From: a virus
Taxonomy: Duplodnaviria; Caudoviricetes
Strand: one strand, 5' to 3'
Virus record (IMG/VR): IMGVR_UViG_2912765049_000001
Span: 64,001-128,000 of that record
Length of the DNA: 64,000 nt
Part shown: one piece after another, positions 56,115 through 64,000 of the stretch
Position numbering within the stretch: position 1 is the stretch's first letter
How the letters are laid out: each line of letters begins with the position of its first letter
Made by a program: the position numbers and the translations under genes
The notes under the pieces: model-generated
The model's database searches: none
What the model saw: only the letters and a program-made list of their open reading frames with translations
Told to the model about the DNA's origin: nothing

Positions 56115-58646
56115 TCAGTTCTCTTCCTTGATCTGGGCGAGGAGGGCGTTGAGGGCGTCGGGCTTGTGCAGCACGTCGCGGGCCTTGCTGCCGTCGCGCT
56201 CGCCGACGATGTCCCGGGCGGTCATCTGGTCCATGAGCCAGACCGCCTTGGCGAAGCCGACGCGCAGCTTGCGCTGCAGCATCGACGTGGACCCGAACTG
56301 GGTGGAGACGACCAGCTCGACGGCGTGGCAGAACAGGTCCAGGTCGTCGCCGAGCGGCTCGGCTCCGTCTTCGTCCTCGTCGTCGTCCTGCAGTTCGGCC
56401 GGCGCCGGGTGGTCGGGGTCGGCCCACACATACGGTGTCCTGGGTCCGCCGGGCTGCAGGACGCTCTCGTCGTTGGCGAACCACTTCGAGACGGCCTGCC
56501 GGCTGGGCGGCTTCTCCTCCGGGTACTGCTCCTCGAGCCGCTTCAGGCAGGCGTCGATGGTGATGCCGTCGGGCCCGGCGTCGCGGACCATCTCCATCAC
56601 TTCGTCCTTGCGGGGGTGCTCGCGGGATTTGTCCTTCTCGGCCTCCTCCTGCGCCTGCTGGGCGCCGTGCTTCTCGGCGGCCTGCTGGGTGAGCCATTCG
56701 GCCTCGGCGAGTGCCTTGGAGATCGCGGCCTGCACGCTTGCCTCGTCCGGGCCGGGCGTTCCGGCCGGCGGGGTGGGCTGGCCGCCGACCGGCGGCTGCT
56801 GGCCCCCCTGGCCGCCGCCGTACCGCCGGAGGTAGTCCTCGGCGGACCCCAGAGGACCGAGGTCGCTGGGCAGGGTCCCGCGCCCGGTGCTTCCGTTGCC
56901 GGAACCGCCGGTGCCCGCGGGCGGCTGGACGGTCGGCGCGGGCGGCGCCATGGTGCCGGTGCCGCCGCCGTTCATGCTGGCGGAGGTGCCCGTGCTCGCC
57001 GAGCGCGGCGCGTCGATGCCGAAGGCTTCCAGCAGCCAGCCGATGCGCTCGGTGTCGGACCAGCGATCGCCGTAGCCCCATTTGTTGGCGATGGCGACGG
57101 CCTCGTCGTCCAGGTCGGGACGGATGTGGGCGCGGGCGACCGCCATCTCCTCGATGTGCGTGGAGTCCTCGTCGTCGTTGACGTACGCGAAGCGCCCCTT
57201 CTCCGGCGGCTCGGAGGGGTTCATGGCCGACGTCTTGATGTAGCAGGCGCCGTTGCCGGGCAGGGCGGCCAAATTCACCTGGTGGTAGAAGTCCGGGAAG
57301 ACGTACTGGCCCTCGCCCTTCTTCCGGAAGCGCAGGCCGATCGTCGTGTCGTACTGGCTGTCGATTTCGCCGCCGCCCGTGTTGGGGCCGGTACCGCGCT
57401 GCACCACGTCGACGTAGTCGATCGCCGCCTTGCGGCCCTTCTTGATGCCGCGGGTCTTGGGCTTGGCGGCCATCGGCGACCAGGCCATCAGGTCCGAGCC
57501 TTCCTCGGTGATGACGATGATCGCGGGCTTGTCCGGCTTCGGGACGAGCTTGCCGCCCGGGGCGGTCTTCGCCCGCTGGTCCGCGACGTCGTGTGCCGCG
57601 TTGTACAGCCGTACCGCCTCGTCCTCGGTCGTGGCGATCCAGTCGATGAGCGGGCGGTCGATGACGTTGCCGTCCCCGTCCTTCCAGCCCTCCACCCACG
57701 GCCGCACCCACCGCTTGGCCGTGTGGCCGCTGGCCATGTCGATCATCCAGATCACCGCGTCGACGCAGCGCGTGAGGAGGGAGATCAGCACGTGCAGGGT
57801 GACGCTCTTGCCGGAGCCCTTCTGGCCCGCGATGAGCACGCTGTTCTGCCGCATCAGCAGTTCGATGGGCTCGCCCGACTCCAACATCCCGAGCGTGAGG
57901 GGCTCGTTGATGGTGATGGGGTGGTCGCTGGGGTCCAGCTCCACCAGCTCGGCGAGCACGTTGCGCGTGGACACCTGCAGGTACGCCCGGTCGGCCGTCT
58001 CGCCCGGCTTCAGGGTGAGCGCGCCGGCACGGACACCGGCCTTCATCTCCAGGCGCTTGAGCAGCGGCAGCAGGCCGTCGAAGTCGGTCTCGGTGAGCCG
58101 CAGCGTCAGCTGGAAGCCGTAGTTGGCCTTGTCCTTGCCCTCGACGAACACGCCGCGGGCGCCGACCGAGGCGAACATGTCCGCCCAGTCGGTCAGCGGC
58201 TTGGCGAGCGCCGCCTCCTCCTTCGCCCACTGCTCGGCGATCTCGTCGCCGCGCAGGTAGCGGTCGATGCCGTAGAACGGGGAGATCATCACCGTCATGG
58301 CGCCGAGCGCGGCGGCCGAGGCGAGCGTCCACGGGGTGCCGTGGGCGACCCAGTTCAGCCAGCCCGCCGCGGCGCCGGTCCAGATGCCGGAGAACGCGGT
58401 GTGGAACCAGCGGGCGCGCCTGGAGCGGCCCTCGCCGCCGGTGCGGATGAAGCGGGCGGTGGCCACGGCGATGACCCCGCCGACCGAGCCGATGCCGAGC
58501 ATGTCCAGCGGCACGGTGTGGCCCTGGTCCTCGATTACGCCCAGGCCGACGCCATCGAGGTAGATGAACCCCGCGGTGAACAGCGGGGTCGAGACGACCC
58601 CGTGCACCCAGGGGATGACCTCGCGGTCTTCCTTCGAGCGGGCCAT
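56115..58646 (-). CDS. traB: TraB-type FtsK/SpoIIIE conjugative DNA translocase with a C-terminal FtsK gamma domain
   Basis: N-terminal TM helices, Walker [27 protein letters not shown], a wHTH-like segment, then [20 protein letters not shown]...GSKARDVL. Confidence 0.8.
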
Positions 58647-58721: not shown

Positions 58722-61163
58722 TCAGGCGGTGTTGCGGGACTGGTCCCACTTGGCGGCCTGGTAGCTGGGGTTTTCGAGGTTGTGGAGCTGCTCCTGGTGC
58801 AGCAGCCGGTACAGGAAGTGGACGGCGGTGATGGCGCCGCCCAGGTCGCGGAAGCGCTGGCCGGCGTCCCGGTGCATGGCGGTGACGGCCTCGTGGACGC
58901 GGAACTCCGACTCGGTGACGGTGGCGACCGTCTCCATCAGCTCGTAGAGGGCCTCCGCGAGCGGCGCGAGGTGCTCGATGGTCATCTCGTAGCCGAACAT
59001 CGTCCCGGACGGGTGCAGCCGGATGTGGATCCCGGCGTCGCGGATGGCGCCGGAGGCCAGCAGCAACGGCATGACGTGGACGGTCGGGTCGGTCCACGCG
59101 AACTGCGGCATGACGTGCGCCCAGTTCTCGGACAGGTCCCACTTGCGGCCCTGCCAGGTGGGGTTCTCGATGTTGTCGAGCTGCTCGGCGTGGATCTCCC
59201 GGTACACCTTGTGAGCCGAGTCGACGAACGCGCCCAGCGCCAGGAAGTGGATGCCGATCGTGCGGTACTGGTTCGGGATCTCCGGGTTGACCTTGAAGTC
59301 GTCCTCGGTGACCTGCGCGATGTCGTGCATCAGGTGGCACATCGCGAACTCGAGGTGGCCGAGGTTCTCGATGACTGCCTCGTAGCCCTTCATGCTGTCG
59401 GCCGGCGCCGCCGCGAAGGCGGCTGCGGCCATCCGGATCGCGTCCGCCGCGTAGATGAGTGGATAGGCGTGGTGAACCGGGGCGTTGTCCACGGGTGTTC
59501 CTCCTGCGGTTCCTGCTGCGGTGGCCGGCGACGGCACGGGGGCGTGCCCGCCGGAAGTCGGTACGGGAGCGGCGGTGCCGCCTCCTGCGGTCGGGACCGG
59601 TCCGGCCTTCTTCGCGGCGGCCGGCGCAGGCAGCGGGCTGGCGGTGGCGGTCTTGTAGACCCACGCGTTCAGCCACGACCAGGTCCGCGAGACGTTGACG
59701 AGCTTGGCCAGCGGGCTGGTCGCCCAGTACAGGACCCGGGAGAGCGGACGCAGCCAGTTCGGCCCCATGGTCGAGAAACGGACCGTGCCCAAGAACGAGT
59801 TGAGGGAGAGGACCGCCCGGCCGCCCCAGCGCATCGCGTTGGCCAGGAGCTTCCCGCCGTGCCGGCGGGTGCCGCGGAACACCGCGCGGAACGGCGTCGC
59901 CACCTTGTTCATGCGGTGGCGAAACCTCGGGCTGCTGACCTTCCGGTACACCTTCCCGGCGGCGCTCTTGGTCTTCCGGATCGGGTTCCGCTTCCAGGTG
60001 TAGCCCGCGTGCCGAGGCGCCTTCGCCTTACCGACCTTGTGCTTCTTCTTGCCGGAGCCCTTCGGGCCCTTCGCGGCGCCCTTGCCCTTTCCCTTGCCGG
60101 CGGGCGAGACCTTGCCGGGCTTGCCCGGAGCGCCCTTGCCGGGGCCCTTGCCCGGGGCCTTCTTGCCGCCAGCGCCCGTGCCCTTGCCGGTGGGCGCGCC
60201 CTTGCCCGGAGCGCCCTTGCCCGCGCCCGTGGTGCCCTTGGGCGCCTTCTTGCCGCCCAGGTCCTTGATCTTCCCGGCCAGGGCCTTCGCGTCCTTGCCC
60301 AGCGCGCGCGAACCGTCGCTGAGACCCTCGAGCATCCCCTTGCCGCTCTTCCCCGGCACGGCAGAACCCTTGCCGCCTCCGGCGCCCTTGCGGTTCAGGT
60401 TGCCGCTCCCGGGCGTGCCGGGCCCCTTGCCGCCCGGGCCCTTGGAGCCGAGTCCCTTGGAGCCAGGCCCCCCGCCGCCGAACAGGCTGCCCTTCATGGG
60501 CTTCGGACCGGCGGTCGACCGGTTGCCGCCCAGGCCGCCCTTGTTGGAGCGCGGCGAGGTGTTCAGGCCGCCGGAGCGGTTGGAGGACGGGCGGTTCGGT
60601 CCCAGGCCGACAGGCTTGCGGGACGGGCCACCACCGGGGCCGGTCGTGCCCCTGGACCCGGCGCCGGAGCGCCGCGGGCCGCTCCCGCCGGAACGGTTCC
60701 CCGACAGACCGCCACCCGAGCGGCCAGCGCCGGTGCCCGTGCCTCCCCGGCGTCCGGCGCCCGTGCCGCGGCCCGGGCCGCCTCCTCCGGTGCCGTTCCC
60801 GGCCCGGTTGCGGCGGCTGGCGACCTGGGCGGCCCGGCGGCCGGCCCTGATGACCGCAGCCGTGGTCGCGGTGGCCGCGGCGGCCAGGATCGCGAAGATG
60901 ACGATCGGCAGGCCGAAGACGTGGGCCAGCCAGCACACCGAGATCAGTCCGGTGATCACGCCGCCGGGGATCAGGACCCCGGCAAGGCTGCTGTCCTTCT
61001 GTGACGTAGAGCGACGGCGCTGCGTGCGCTGACCGCCCGGGTCCGTGGTCGCTGCCGCGCCCGACGCCTGGGGCGGTACGGCAGCAACAGGCGGCGGCGC
61101 GGTCGCCGTGGCCGCCGGCGGCGCCATGTCGAAGTCGGGGGTGCTCACGGGGTCTTCCTCCAC
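58722..61163 (-). CDS. TraA-like membrane protein with a G/K/P-rich linker and a duplicated C-terminal helical domain
   Basis: Two repeats ending H.EQL.N.ENP....KWD; immediately upstream of traB. Confidence 0.6.
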   Translation of the reverse strand: MEEDPVSTPDFDMAPPAATATAPPPVAAVPPQASGAAATTDPGGQRTQRRRSTSQKDSSLAGVLIPGGVITGLISVCWLAHVFGLPIVIFAILAAAATATTAAVIRAGRRAAQVASRRNRAGNGTGGGGPGRGTGAGRRGGTGTGAGRSGGGLSGNRSGGSGPRRSGAGSRGTTGPGGGPSRKPVGLGPNRPSSNRSGGLNTSPRSNKGGLGGNRSTAGPKPMKGSLFGGGGPGSKGLGSKGPGGKGPGTPGSGNLNRKGAGGGKGSAVPGKSGKGMLEGLSDGSRALGKDAKALAGKIKDLGGKKAPKGTTGAGKGAPGKGAPTGKGTGAGGKKAPGKGPGKGAPGKPGKVSPAGKGKGKGAAKGPKGSGKKKHKVGKAKAPRHAGYTWKRNPIRKTKSAAGKVYRKVSSPRFRHRMNKVATPFRAVFRGTRRHGGKLLANAMRWGGRAVLSLNSFLGTVRFSTMGPNWLRPLSRVLYWATSPLAKLVNVSRTWSWLNAWVYKTATASPLPAPAAAKKAGPVPTAGGGTAAPVPTSGGHAPVPSPATAAGTAGGTPVDNAPVHHAYPLIYAADAIRMAAAAFAAAPADSMKGYEAVIENLGHLEFAMCHLMHDIAQVTEDDFKVNPEIPNQYRTIGIHFLALGAFVDSAHKVYREIHAEQLDNIENPTWQGRKWDLSENWAHVMPQFAWTDPTVHVMPLLLASGAIRDAGIHIRLHPSGTMFGYEMTIEHLAPLAEALYELMETVATVTESEFRVHEAVTAMHRDAGQRFRDLGGAITAVHFLYRLLHQEQLHNLENPSYQAAKWDQSRNTA

Positions 61164-61206
61164 ATCAGGGGCGGCGAGGTGCGGTAACTGTGCGTGTCGG
61201 GCATGG

Positions 61207-61366
61207 CGTCAAGCCGGAGCGTCAACGTCAACGTCAAGGAGCCTCGTCAACGTCAATTCGTGCTGATCAAGGGGCCGTTTCCGGGGCCTGGGGCGGGGTT
61301 TGGAGCCCTCACGTCACGTCCGGGAGATAGACGTTGACGTTGACGCACCCAGCTTCACGTCACGTT
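61207..61366. repeat. Cluster of CGTCAA/ACGTCA hexamers (candidate clt or regulator site)
   Basis: 6 CGTCAA forward, 2 TTGACG and 2 CACGTCACGT in about 160 bp upstream of the traA-like gene. Confidence 0.7.
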
Positions 61367-61827
61367 CGGTTAGCGAAGTAGGAGAGGATGAGGACCGCGC
61401 CGATGACCGCCAGCAGGTGGTTGGCGAACCTCGACGAGATGCGCTGGCGGGCGACCGGGCGGTAGGCGGCGGAGAAGTCCCGCGTCCCGCGTGAGGCGTC
61501 CAGCGGCTGGCGCAGGCCCGCCGGGATGCCCTCGAAGGACGTCTTCCAACGCGTCGGACTGTCACGCTCCGTGAGGTCGGGAAGCTCGCCCGCCTGCAGG
61601 GCCATCTCGAGCGTGTTGAGGTCCCGGCGGGCGCGGTCGATGTTCCGCTGGATCCAGTCGTCCCTGTCGTTCACCGCGACGGTGCGCAGGATCTGGTCCA
61701 GGTGGTGGTGGACGGCGGCGAAGTGCGCGATCGCGGGAGTCTCGGTCAACGCGAACTTGGCGTCGACGCAGGCCATCTGACGGCCGTTGAGCTTGGGCGG
61801 CGGTACGCGCTCGAGCTGGGGGTCCAT
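61360..61827 (-). CDS. Hypothetical protein with a C-terminal TM helix
   Basis: GAGGAAG RBS; good codon bias. Confidence 0.6.
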   Translation of the reverse strand: MDPQLERVPPPKLNGRQMACVDAKFALTETPAIAHFAAVHHHLDQILRTVAVNDRDDWIQRNIDRARRDLNTLEMALQAGELPDLTERDSPTRWKTSFEGIPAGLRQPLDASRGTRDFSAAYRPVARQRISSRFANHLLAVIGAVLILSYFANRT

Positions 61828-61855
61828 GCTTCCTCCTCTCGGGTATTTGTGCAGG

Positions 61856-62077
61856 TCAGGCGGTGCCGTTGTAGGCGTCGAGGGCTTCGAGCTGACTCCA
61901 GTCGACGCGGATCTCCAGGTCGAGCTCCTGGTCGCGGGCCCAGTTCTGGCCGTCCTTGTCGCCGGGCAGCCGGGTGGTGATCTCGGACTCCAGGCGGCGG
62001 GCGGCGCCGGTGAGGATGTCCCGGGCCTCGCGGACGGTCGTGGCCCGCAGGACGGTCCCGGTGGTGTCGTTGGTCAT
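61856..62077 (-). CDS. Hypothetical protein
   Basis: Purine-rich RBS; 73 aa. Confidence 0.55.
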   Translation of the reverse strand: MTNDTTGTVLRATTVREARDILTGAARRLESEITTRLPGDKDGQNWARDQELDLEIRVDWSQLEALDAYNGTA

Positions 62078-62114
62078 CGGTGACGGCTCTCTCTCGTTCT
62101 CGTGTTTTTGCAGG

Positions 62115-62411
62115 TCAGGGGGCTTGCCAGGTGCGGTCGTAGTCCGCGCCCGGGTTCTCGTCGTCGCCGGCCTGGAACTGTTCGTTGAGCTGCCGGGACT
62201 CGGTGATGGCCTGGATGACCGGGCCGAGGTCGAGGGAGATGCGGAGCTTGATCGGGGTGTTCCGGCGGGTGTCGTTCTTGATGAAGGGGTCGCCGGGGAC
62301 GAGGGTCTTGAGGTGGGCGTCGATGAGGTTCGTGACGGCCTCGAGGGAGGTCTGGGCCTCCTGGGCGGTGGCGGCCTCCCACTCGTACTTCGGGGGGTCG
62401 ACGAGGGTCAT
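62115..62411 (-). CDS. Hypothetical protein
   Basis: AAGGGA RBS; 98 aa. Confidence 0.58.
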   Translation of the reverse strand: MTLVDPPKYEWEAATAQEAQTSLEAVTNLIDAHLKTLVPGDPFIKNDTRRNTPIKLRISLDLGPVIQAITESRQLNEQFQAGDDENPGADYDRTWQAP

Positions 62412-62434
62412 GTCCCTTGCTCTCCTTCGGTCTT

Positions 62435-63072
62435 GGTCTCGCGGGGTGGGTCTCGGTGCTGGGGCGGTCTCGGTGTCGGCCCCGGCCGGTGCGGGTCTCG
62501 CAGGGGTGTGTGACCGGGTCTCGCGAGACCCGGTCTCGGGGTCTCAGCCGTCGGTGCCAGTGGCGTCGGTCTCGGTCTCGAGGTCTCGGTAGGTGCGGTG
62601 TCCGGCCTCGTACAGGGCCCGGGCGTCGGCAAGCCGCTTAGCTGCGGTGGAGCGGGGGCAGCCGGTGATCTCCTCGGCCTCCCCCTTGGCGTTCTTCGGG
62701 CCGAGCTGCACCGTGTTCGCGCCGCCGCGCTCCCACATGACGTCCAGCAGGGCCTGGACTTCGGCGGCCTTGTCCCGCAGCCGCGAGACCTTCGCGGTAC
62801 CGGTCTCGCGGGGGCGAGACCTGGGGGCCGTGGTCTCGCGAGACCGGGCCTGGGTGGTCTCACGAGACCTGCGAGACCCGCCCTGGCCGGTCTCGCGAGA
62901 CCCGGTCTCGCGGGTCTCAGCGGTCTCGGTCTCGGTGTCCGTGCGGGTGTGAGACCCGGTCTCGGTGGTCTCGTGAGACCCGTTCGAGACCCCGGTCTCA
63001 CCGGGGGGCAGCGCACGGCGGGTCTCGGTCTCGATCGCCTCGGTGTCCGAGACCGAGGTCTCGGGCGAGACC
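62435..63072. repeat. Dense GGTCTC/GAGACC array including GGTCTCGCGAGACC palindromes
   Basis: About 36 hexamers by manual count in about 640 bp, in both orientations, inside and downstream of the gene. Confidence 0.9.
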
Positions 63073-64000
63073 CGCTCGAGGAACTCGATCACCGGGATCG
63101 TCGTGGGACCGGCGTCGGGACCGGTGCGGTGGACGGTGACGACGTAGCGGTCCGCGTAGGCCGCTCCGGCGCGGCGGGCCTTGCGGTCCGCGAGGATGTG
63201 GCCGGCGGCGGTCCAGGCGGCTTCGGCGTTCGCCCACCGAAGCGGGTTGTCGATCATCAGGGAGCGGGCGGTCCAGGAGCGGACCGGGTAGCGGGTCCAG
63301 CGGCCCATGCCGAGGCTCGGCAGTGCCGGCGGGAGGTTCTTGTCCTCGCGCAGCTTGCGGCGGTGGACCAGGCGGGCGAACAGCTCCCACAGGACGACGC
63401 CGACCATCGACATGGCGCTGAAGGTGACCGCGCGGGGGGTGGCCGACCAGTCGTGGGAGTAGTGCCACCACTGCTGTACCGCGGCGCCGATCCCGAACAG
63501 CCAGGTGGCGATGCGGTACTCCCAGCCCTTGTCGCCGTCGCGGCGGGCCTGGTCGTACAGCCAGGCGCAGTACGCGGTCGTCATCTCGTACGCGGCGGCG
63601 TAGACCAGGGACGCGGCGAAGTTCCAGCCCAGGACCTTGATGGCGAAGCCGGACTGTCCGGTCCAGGCGACCACCATCGGCGCGATGATGGGCACGATGA
63701 TCAGGGCTCGGACGGCGGCGGCCAGCAGGATCTTGCGCACCTTGTCGAGCGGGGTCGGCTTGCCCTCCTTGCGGGACTGACGGCGCTGCCGGGTCTGCTC
63801 GTCGAGCTGCTCCTTCTCCTTCCGCTTCTTGGTCCGCTGCCGGTCGGCCGCCTCGTCCTTCAGCCTCCGCTTCTCCAGCTTCTGGAACGTCGGGCTCAGG
63901 GCGCGCTCGAGTTCTGCGGCGGCCTTCTCCCGGTCTTCCTGAGCCTCCTTTCGCAGGTTGTCGGCCTCGGCGGTCGCCTCGGCGCGCTTGGTCCTGGCCT
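62544..64000 (-). CDS. DUF2637/Spd-like membrane protein with an N-terminal coiled coil and a C-terminal HTH (5'-partial)
   Basis: Frame open to the window edge; four TM helices; LPSLGMGRWTRYPVRSW; EAEEITGCPRSTAAKRL. Confidence 0.72.
   Translation of the reverse strand, partial: ARTKRAEATAEADNLRKEAQEDREKAAAELERALSPTFQKLEKRRLKDEAADRQRTKKRKEKEQLDEQTRQRRQSRKEGKPTPLDKVRKILLAAAVRALIIVPIIAPMVVAWTGQSGFAIKVLGWNFAASLVYAAAYEMTTAYCAWLYDQARRDGDKGWEYRIATWLFGIGAAVQQWWHYSHDWSATPRAVTFSAMSMVGVVLWELFARLVHRRKLREDKNLPPALPSLGMGRWTRYPVRSWTARSLMIDNPLRWANAEAAWTAAGHILADRKARRAGAAYADRYVVTVHRTGPDAGPTTIPVIEFLERVSPETSVSDTEAIETETRRALPPGETGVSNGSHETTETGSHTRTDTETETAETRETGSRETGQGGSRRSRETTQARSRETTAPRSRPRETGTAKVSRLRDKAAEVQALLDVMWERGGANTVQLGPKNAKGEAEEITGCPRSTAAKRLADARALYEAGHRTYRDLETETDATGTDG

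Follow-up and report, generated by a model that had tools for sequence, protein, structure and literature searches.

Conjugative transfer in Streptomyces depends for its first step on TraB, and both the recruitment of the plasmid DNA and its Spd-mediated passage through the recipient mycelium are unexplained (PMC4447253). The TraB/TraA proteins of pSVH1, pJV1 and pWTY27 act at clt loci, element-specific clusters of 4–9 short repeats within or next to a transfer gene, which are read by the C-terminal wHTH of the translocase itself and serve as an assembly site for the transfer of dsDNA (PMC4447253, PMC3583192). SpdA2 of pIJ101, a small (117–163 aa) soluble protein with an N-terminal DNA-binding region, binds palindromes within its own coding region, namely 1–3 copies of the 12-bp sequence CGTCACGTGACG, which is conserved across plasmids, and has a stability phenotype (Thoma et al. 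2014, PMC4170104). SpdA interacts with TraB and with Spd proteins (PMC4447253), and SpdB2 of pSVH1 is an oligomeric integral membrane spread protein that contacts TraB and is reported to bind DNA non-specifically, with no array in cis described for it (Thoma et al. 2015, PMC4447253).

The locus described here shares features with each of these. It lies at the head of a TraB operon, where the 3' part of a gene for a predicted membrane protein, together with the adjoining flank, carries a dense array of a 6–7-bp word. As with SpdA2 and sps, a candidate DNA-binding protein of a transfer region has its sites in or next to its own gene, where they shape the peptide (SRDD/E there, ET/SR here). It differs from SpdA2 in that the candidate reader is the C-terminal domain of an 843-aa membrane protein, and in that the word is element-specific and occurs in 23–41 copies of 6–7 bp. 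The sps palindrome CGTCACGTGACG is absent from the window (the whole 64,000-nt stretch of DNA analyzed) at one mismatch or less, and its five matches with 2 mismatches are fewer than expected by chance. The likeness to clt lies in the element-specific cluster of short repeats, but the word of the array co-varies with the HTH of a separate membrane protein and not with TraB; no cluster of GACCCGGA, which we take to be the recognition word of the pSVH1 TraB, occurs in the window. By description, the protein resembles SpdB2 in its N-terminal coiled coil, a presumably cytoplasmic C-terminal domain and the position of its gene in a spd/tra region. Many short sites at a single locus, bound by many small DNA-binding domains that position or anchor a replicon, are also found in the centromere and anchoring systems ParB/parS, ParR/parC, TubR/tubC and RacA/ram, and parS of Bacillus subtilis sits inside spo0J. 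In contrast to these, the cassette has no ParA, ParM or TubZ-type motor adjoining it, its candidate reader is an integral membrane protein, the spacing of the array is irregular, and the setting is a TraB transfer operon. The literature searched on DUF2637 or on such arrays contained nothing relevant and no description of this system. New relative to the precedents would be the membrane-protein reader, the 23–41 copies, a word that overwrites the linker peptide, and an exchangeable cassette with at least three specificities.

Replicon and operon

The window is part of C2, a replicon of 151,949 bp in a Streptomyces genome of 9.77 Mb (71% G+C) that also has a chromosome of 9.62 Mb. A locus 99% identical to the array locus is present in S. 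muensis DSM 103493. Since C2 carries, besides the TraB operon, a tailed-phage module (window 10850–44181) with genes for endolysin, tail protein, tape measure, scaffold, portal and large terminase, it is a phage-plasmid-like element with a Streptomyces-type transfer module. It encodes DNA methyltransferases, and a ParA-like gene (C2:28238-28789) is located about 98 kb from the cassette. The operon headed by the array gene continues with small genes, the gene for an 813-aa protein, and that for a TraB-type translocase (Table 1). The gene upstream of the array gene (L001:9134-9844, minus strand), beyond the end of the window and in the transfer operon, specifies a 236-aa membrane protein that matches the Pycsar effector TM family (PF18967, 6e-08) and is PycTM-like. 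The gamma domain of TraB (56115–56360) is 69–72% identical to the gamma domains of chromosomal FtsK proteins in several Streptomyces genomes, and the word that it reads may be a chromosomal one of KOPS type instead of one specific to the element. An Rfam search of positions 61000–64000 returned no RNA family.

Table 1. Features of the array locus and its operon, in window coordinates
Feature	Position	Strand	Basis or remark
TraB-type FtsK-like dsDNA translocase with C-terminal FtsK gamma domain	56115..58646	-	operon of the array gene
TTGACG/CGTCAA repeat cluster, two inverted blocks	61207..61366	.	upstream of the 813-aa gene and traB
73-aa ORF (orf73) between orf98 and orf155	61856-62077	-	counterpart absent from all related loci examined
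98-aa gene (orf98) downstream of the array gene	62115..62411	-	conserved in class A and class B elements
Exchangeable cassette, array plus HTH	62398..63091	.	sole block without homology to class B L009, L010 and L003
Intergenic DNA after the stop (132 bp), 8 words including TGAGACC at the stop; 7 GAGACC and 1 GGTCTC on the coding strand	62412..62543	.	word count
Array, 36 exact GGTCTC/GAGACC words, consensus CGAGACC	62435..63072	.	exact hexamer count
Array gene, 3' part of the 843-aa gene (5' end beyond the window)	62544..64000	-	full ORF L001:6544-9075
C-terminal helical HTH-like domain (∼80 aa, class A, recognition helix RSTAAKRL) plus ETETD tail	62547..62792	-	sequence and AF2 model
Low-complexity ET/SR linker (∼95 aa), 24 of the 36 words	62793..63077	-	codon reading
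Four-helix membrane domain, DUF2637-like	63150..63740	-	phrog_10376 match, 4.8e-11

A dense array of a short word

An earlier note, made from the sequence of the window alone, had reported about 36 GGTCTC/GAGACC hexamers at this locus, and exactly 36 were counted. The array is unique in the genome. The remaining 63.4 kb of the window hold 57 further copies, giving a total of 93 where shuffled sequences have 61 ± 7, and the maximum elsewhere in the 9.77 Mb (both contigs) is 7 words per 700-bp stretch. Outside the array, C2 shows no enrichment or skew of the word and no KOPS-like distribution. Read on the coding (minus) strand, 24 of the words are GAGACC and 12 are GGTCTC, while 30 of the 36 copies have C at position -1, from which the extended consensus C-GAGACC follows. 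Tandem Repeats Finder sees just a few local duplications of two copies (24–33 nt), so the array is not a plain tandem repeat.

Five 14-bp palindromes, GGTCTC-NN-GAGACC, had been listed by the note, and all were found (62517, 62832, 62856, 62889 and 62967). Such pairs are rare or absent in the other loci of the same class (class A, see below), which consist mostly of direct repeats, and the spacing of the words is irregular. A model of dimers on palindromes was dropped, as neither palindromes nor a fixed spacing are conserved in the other class A loci. The same observations indicate that the unit is the single 6–7-bp word, a unit that many tethered domains could recognize as monomers.

The distribution of the words was also as the note had described it. 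The stretch coding for the helical core of the C-terminal domain (62588–62784) is without any word, and the array runs on past the stop codon (62544–62546), which itself lies within a word, TGAGACC, and is followed by 7 words that are wholly intergenic. The non-coding words are polar: within 450 nt after the stop, the five class A loci favor GAGACC on the coding strand by 7:1, 13:1, 15:0, 5:0 and 3:2. Codon preference cannot account for polarity in non-coding DNA. It fits a directional nucleoprotein array, or the hand-over to a directional motor.

Selection on the DNA

The words of the array are read in four frame and strand settings: GAG-ACC, giving Glu-Thr (16 copies), xGG-TCT-Cxx, giving x-Ser-Arg/His (7), xxG-GTC-TCx, giving Val-Ser (4), and CGA-GAC-C, giving Arg-Asp (1), while 8 copies are non-coding. 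One consequence is visible in the codon usage. Of the 11 serine codons in the linker, 7 are TCT, a codon that makes up 0.65% of serine codons genome-wide, as estimated from 461 long ORFs of high GC3 (binomial P ∼1.6e-13), and none of the 12 serine codons in the rest of the array-gene segment is TCT. The use of several frames, the rare codons, the extension into non-coding DNA, and the retention of the word in relatives whose linker peptide has changed all bear out the claim that selection acts here on the DNA and not on the protein.

A protein-driven repeat in the same operon served as a negative control. In the G/K/P-rich part of the 813-aa gene (window 60080–60425), GGCAAGG occurs 12 times (CCTTGCC on the plus strand), with strand and reading frame (Gly-Lys-Gly) the same for every copy, and just 3–4 copies survive in homologs; from these properties it is a repeat driven by the protein. 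They also rule it out as a second array or a KOPS-like clt. The GAGACC array is unlike it.

The array gene and its protein

The earlier note was right that a gene carries the array at 62435–63072, but the extent of the gene had to be corrected, as the ORF runs off the window and encodes 843 aa. The protein consists of an Ala/Glu-rich coiled coil (∼440 aa), a DUF2637-like domain of four TM helices, a linker and an HTH-like domain, in this order. It has no Pfam match, PF10935 (DUF2637) over the 4-TM domain included. However, three relatives that are 47–50% identical to it (P0006, P0009 and P0010) do carry PF10935, and two proteins with the same HTH class, P0167 and P0190, score this family at 2e-36 and 2e-15. 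The even number of TM helices places both termini on the same side of the membrane, which is presumably the cytoplasmic side.

An AlphaFold2 model of the C-terminal domain, computed from an alignment of six sequences, has a pLDDT of 79 and helices at residues 2–21, 37–42, 46–62 and 68–77, of which 37–42 and 46–62 would form the putative helix-turn-helix. No firm family for this domain emerged from searches of Pfam, NCBIfam, PDB sequences, Foldseek, VIA-align and the ESM Atlas. Structural comparison gave weak matches (best Foldseek E 1.8, best Z 4.8), and many of the weak neighbors are DNA-binding domains of TetR, GntR, MarR, DeoR and WYL-type regulators, which is consistent with the domain being an HTH.

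The word follows the class of the C-terminal domain

The C-terminal two-thirds of the protein have more than 150 relatives, nearly all in Streptomyces and many plasmid-borne. Among 401 Streptomyces species genomes sampled, the TM domain was detected in 11 and the class A tail in 3. The DNA of 18 loci was compared, and each has a dense array in the 3' part of the gene and its flank. In 12 of them the anatomy is the same as here: the words occupy the linker DNA, are few or absent over the HTH DNA, and reappear in the tail and downstream of the stop.

The C-terminal domains fall into three classes, each with its own word. Class A (recognition helix [RK]STAAKRL) has 23–41 copies of GAGACC, and comprises the element studied, S. 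yaizuensis, genomes G267 and G301, and a plasmid of S. scopuliridis. Class C, which is homologous to class A, has the helix KTTAY[HN]RL and 19–34 copies of GAACC or CGAACC, and was found in Streptomyces sp. NPDC004267, genome G030 and a 47.8-kb plasmid of Kitasatospora fiedleri. Class B, with the helix GSI[AS][ST]DRA and 28–39 copies of CGGWCCG, is represented by ten loci in two subtypes that are just 37% identical; it is unrelated to the others, and hhalign gave no relation between class A/C and class B domains (probability 0.1). The word agrees with the class of the C-terminal domain in 18 of the 18 loci. The expectation of the earlier note, that homologs would carry other words co-varying with the recognition helix, was thus borne out. 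The note had also named an outcome that would speak against it, homologs conserving the amino acids and not the DNA motif, and the opposite was observed: within class A, HTH identity goes down to 48% and the linkers cannot be aligned, and the word GAGACC is still kept. It is the linker peptide that changes.

The same association can be followed at the protein level, where the dipeptides of the linker are a proxy for the word. Six class A relatives have 16–22 ET plus SR dipeptides, while 110 class B relatives have 0–3 of these and 8–28 DR plus GP; among the 120 protein relatives, linkers rich in ET and SR occur only with class A, and those rich in DR and GP only with class B. For the closest class A proteins (P0001, P0006 and P0011) the words were deduced from the linker peptides only. 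A profile of the A/C domain collected 99 representative proteins, mostly of 250–450 aa, with the domain nearly always at or near the C-terminal end. Some of them are bona fide DUF2637 proteins, and their linker dipeptides (ET, EP/PV, ES, EL or TP, again as a protein-level proxy for the word) follow the recognition helix. A locus search with P0167 as query found no loci.

Arrays are not confined to these three words. A further 80 DUF2637 loci were examined, and their long-linker members have arrays of still other words, among them CGCTCA (L052, 22 copies inside the array region and 5 in the rest of the locus), GTCGGA (L079, 20 and 2), AGGACA (L066, 12 and 0), GGCGAA (L071, 14 and 3) and CGGTCC (L100, 13 and 1), while the short members in this set (∼300 aa) have no arrays.

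Two class B genes are interrupted as annotated or assembled. In contig_5 of S. diastatochromogenes (L003:4388-5683) the C-terminal domain is out of frame, and in NZ_CP117710.1 (L009:8660-11181) the annotation splits the gene into two overlapping CDS. Sequencing errors within the repeats could explain both, as could genuine decay. Two of the array words are also type II restriction sites (GGTCTC for BsaI/Eco31I and CGGWCCG for RsrII), which matters for the cloning of these loci (62435–63072; L010, L011) and is probably a coincidence. We know of no restriction site that corresponds to GAACC or CGAACC.

An exchangeable cassette

Three class B elements (NZ_CP117710.1, NZ_CP108665.1 and S. diastatochromogenes contig_5, i.e. 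L009, L010 and L003) share the backbone of the element studied. DNA identity to them is 72–80% on both sides of the cassette; it stops at window position 63084–63092 and resumes at 62397, so that homology breaks at the outer end of the array and returns 38 bp beyond its other end. The TM domains of these class B elements are 84–85% identical to the one studied, closer than those of other class A proteins, and at least five changes of cassette class are needed on the tree of the TM domain.

The other components of the operon do not follow the word. TraB is 74–76% identical to the TraB of the class B elements and 66% identical to that of the class A element of S. yaizuensis; the recognition helix of its gamma domain is shared unchanged with L009 and has one residue different in S. 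diastatochromogenes, and its second wHTH-like helix shows small changes only (SRQAV vs SRQSV). The earlier note had proposed that either the HTH protein or TraB reads the array. Of these, the HTH protein remains, as the word co-varies with its class, while TraB does not co-vary and is not supported. Three further candidates for a specificity partner, orf98, orf155 and the 813-aa protein, were ruled out because none partitions with the word; orf98 is conserved in class A and class B alike. The orf73 was rejected as well, being unique to the element studied. The TTGACG/CGTCAA cluster provides an internal control, since all five loci of this TraB lineage retain it, irrespective of whether the array consists of GAGACC or CGGWCCG, and it is a candidate for an operator or for the true TraB site.

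With TraB, orf98, orf155 and the 813-aa protein all independent of the word, only the C-terminal domain encoded by the array gene itself co-varies with it. The word follows this domain and TraB does not follow the word, which argues that the array is the docking site of the protein itself rather than a clt of TraB; on the comparisons made, it is probably the protein's own predicted site. The swap alone is no proof of recognition, as the array and the DNA coding for the domain are interleaved within 700 bp and one recombination carries both, so that co-transfer by linkage is expected. More weight rests on the persistence of the word within a class across long divergence, non-coding DNA included, and on its change between the homologous classes A and C, and from this we infer physical binding.

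Alternative explanations

Four other explanations of the array were weighed. If it were a clt-type site, TraB hexamers would assemble on the repeats and pump the dsDNA of the element. The clt loci described so far consist of short repeats clustered close to tra genes or overlapping them, and TraB or TraA binds them (PMC4447253, PMC3583192); the array, 3.8 kb from traB in the same operon, is such a cluster; its non-coding class A words are polar, as they would be at a site for loading a directional motor. Against this stand the relationships of TraB, which is closer to that of the CGGWCCG elements than to that of the other GAGACC element compared (74–76% vs 66%), with the gamma recognition helix identical to that of L009 and the second wHTH-like helix nearly unchanged, the fact that it is a different cluster (TTGACG, 61207–61366) that stays with this TraB lineage, and the lack of enrichment or skew of GAGACC elsewhere on C2. 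Taken together, these make a clt clearly improbable. A second possibility keeps the protein as the reader and changes the purpose: the pair would be a centromere-like determinant of stability or incompatibility for a low-copy replicon, and not part of transfer or spread. It has a precedent in SpdA2/sps of pIJ101, which affects segregational stability and not transfer (PMC4170104). Dense arrays of direct repeats resemble the ParR/parC and TubR/tubC centromeres. Swaps of a site together with its reader among close relatives are typical of incompatibility determinants, ParB/parS of P1 and P7 being an example. However, the gene lies inside a TraB/Spd-type operon and its family travels with TraB-type genes in the loci examined, no NTPase partner (ParA, ParM or TubZ) is found beside the cassette, the word spacing is irregular, and a separate ParA-like gene is present on C2. 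We regard a purely segregational role as rather unlikely, and favor, to a modest degree, a role in transfer or spread, on the grounds of the operon context and of the ParA-like gene elsewhere on C2. That gene is itself silent on this locus.

The remaining two dispense with the HTH as reader. The array could be a by-product, functionless as DNA, of an ET/SR linker grown by slippage, and in keeping with this Glu and Thr are preferentially encoded by GAG and ACC, local duplications of 24–33 nt exist, class B linkers have clear tandem peptide repeats, and a truly codon-driven cluster (GGCAAGG, 12 copies) lies nearby. The non-coding extension and the codon data contradict it: slippage does not account for four frame and strand settings plus non-coding copies, for the rare TCT at 7 of 11 serines (P ∼1.6e-13), for a word kept where linker peptides cannot be aligned, or for three different words each tied to one HTH class, and the idea is hardly credible. 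A different reader of the words, for instance a host protein or a restriction-modification enzyme, is likewise very improbable. Type II restriction sites do match two of the three words, and DNA methyltransferases are encoded on the element, but no restriction-modification gene is found in or beside the cassette and none co-varies with it, while a host factor would leave unexplained why the word changes with a domain encoded in cis.

Proposed mechanism and significance

The explanation that we consider probable as a whole is that the HTH-like domain has its cognate docking site in the array carried by its own gene, an arrangement by which the locus would be tethered at the membrane near TraB. 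The protein would be anchored in the membrane by its DUF2637-like 4-TM domain and would oligomerize, probably through the N-terminal coiled coil of 440 aa, so that many copies of the HTH, each held in the cytoplasm on a flexible linker of ∼95 aa, could bind single CGAGACC words, of which there are 36 in 640 bp. One locus of the 152-kb phage-plasmid would thus be fastened to the membrane by multivalent tethering, beside the TraB DNA pump encoded in the same operon, and the fastened DNA would be offered for transfer or for intramycelial spread. The array and the HTH would form one exchangeable specificity cassette. More speculatively, the sites may lie in and just behind the tail-coding DNA because the protein captures its DNA in cis while transcription, translation and membrane insertion are coupled, as the HTH would be translated last, beside its own sites, with the TM domain already in the membrane.

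If this is true, an Spd-like membrane protein with a sequence-specific tail and a private array of 23–41 copies would connect the DNA substrate to the membrane apparatus, a link that has so far been missing. The family also offers natural specificity swaps, with three words and three recognition domains on near-identical backbones. Apart from its function, the locus shows how strongly a site in cis can shape a coding sequence, down to rare codons and a linker peptide dictated by a DNA word, and such DNA-dictated linkers matter for annotation and for the reading of low-complexity regions. Beyond this element, it is plausible, and put forward here tentatively, that a widespread system of address labels exists among the DUF2637-type membrane proteins found on plasmids of actinomycetes, on AICEs and on phage-plasmids. 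In it, swappable cassettes, each a C-terminal reader domain with tens of copies of its word running through the linker codons and 3' flank of the gene, would fasten DNA to the membrane at the TraB/Spd apparatus, decide which DNA is passed on in intramycelial spread, and act as a determinant of specificity or incompatibility. If this reading holds, a molecular role would be assigned to Spd proteins.
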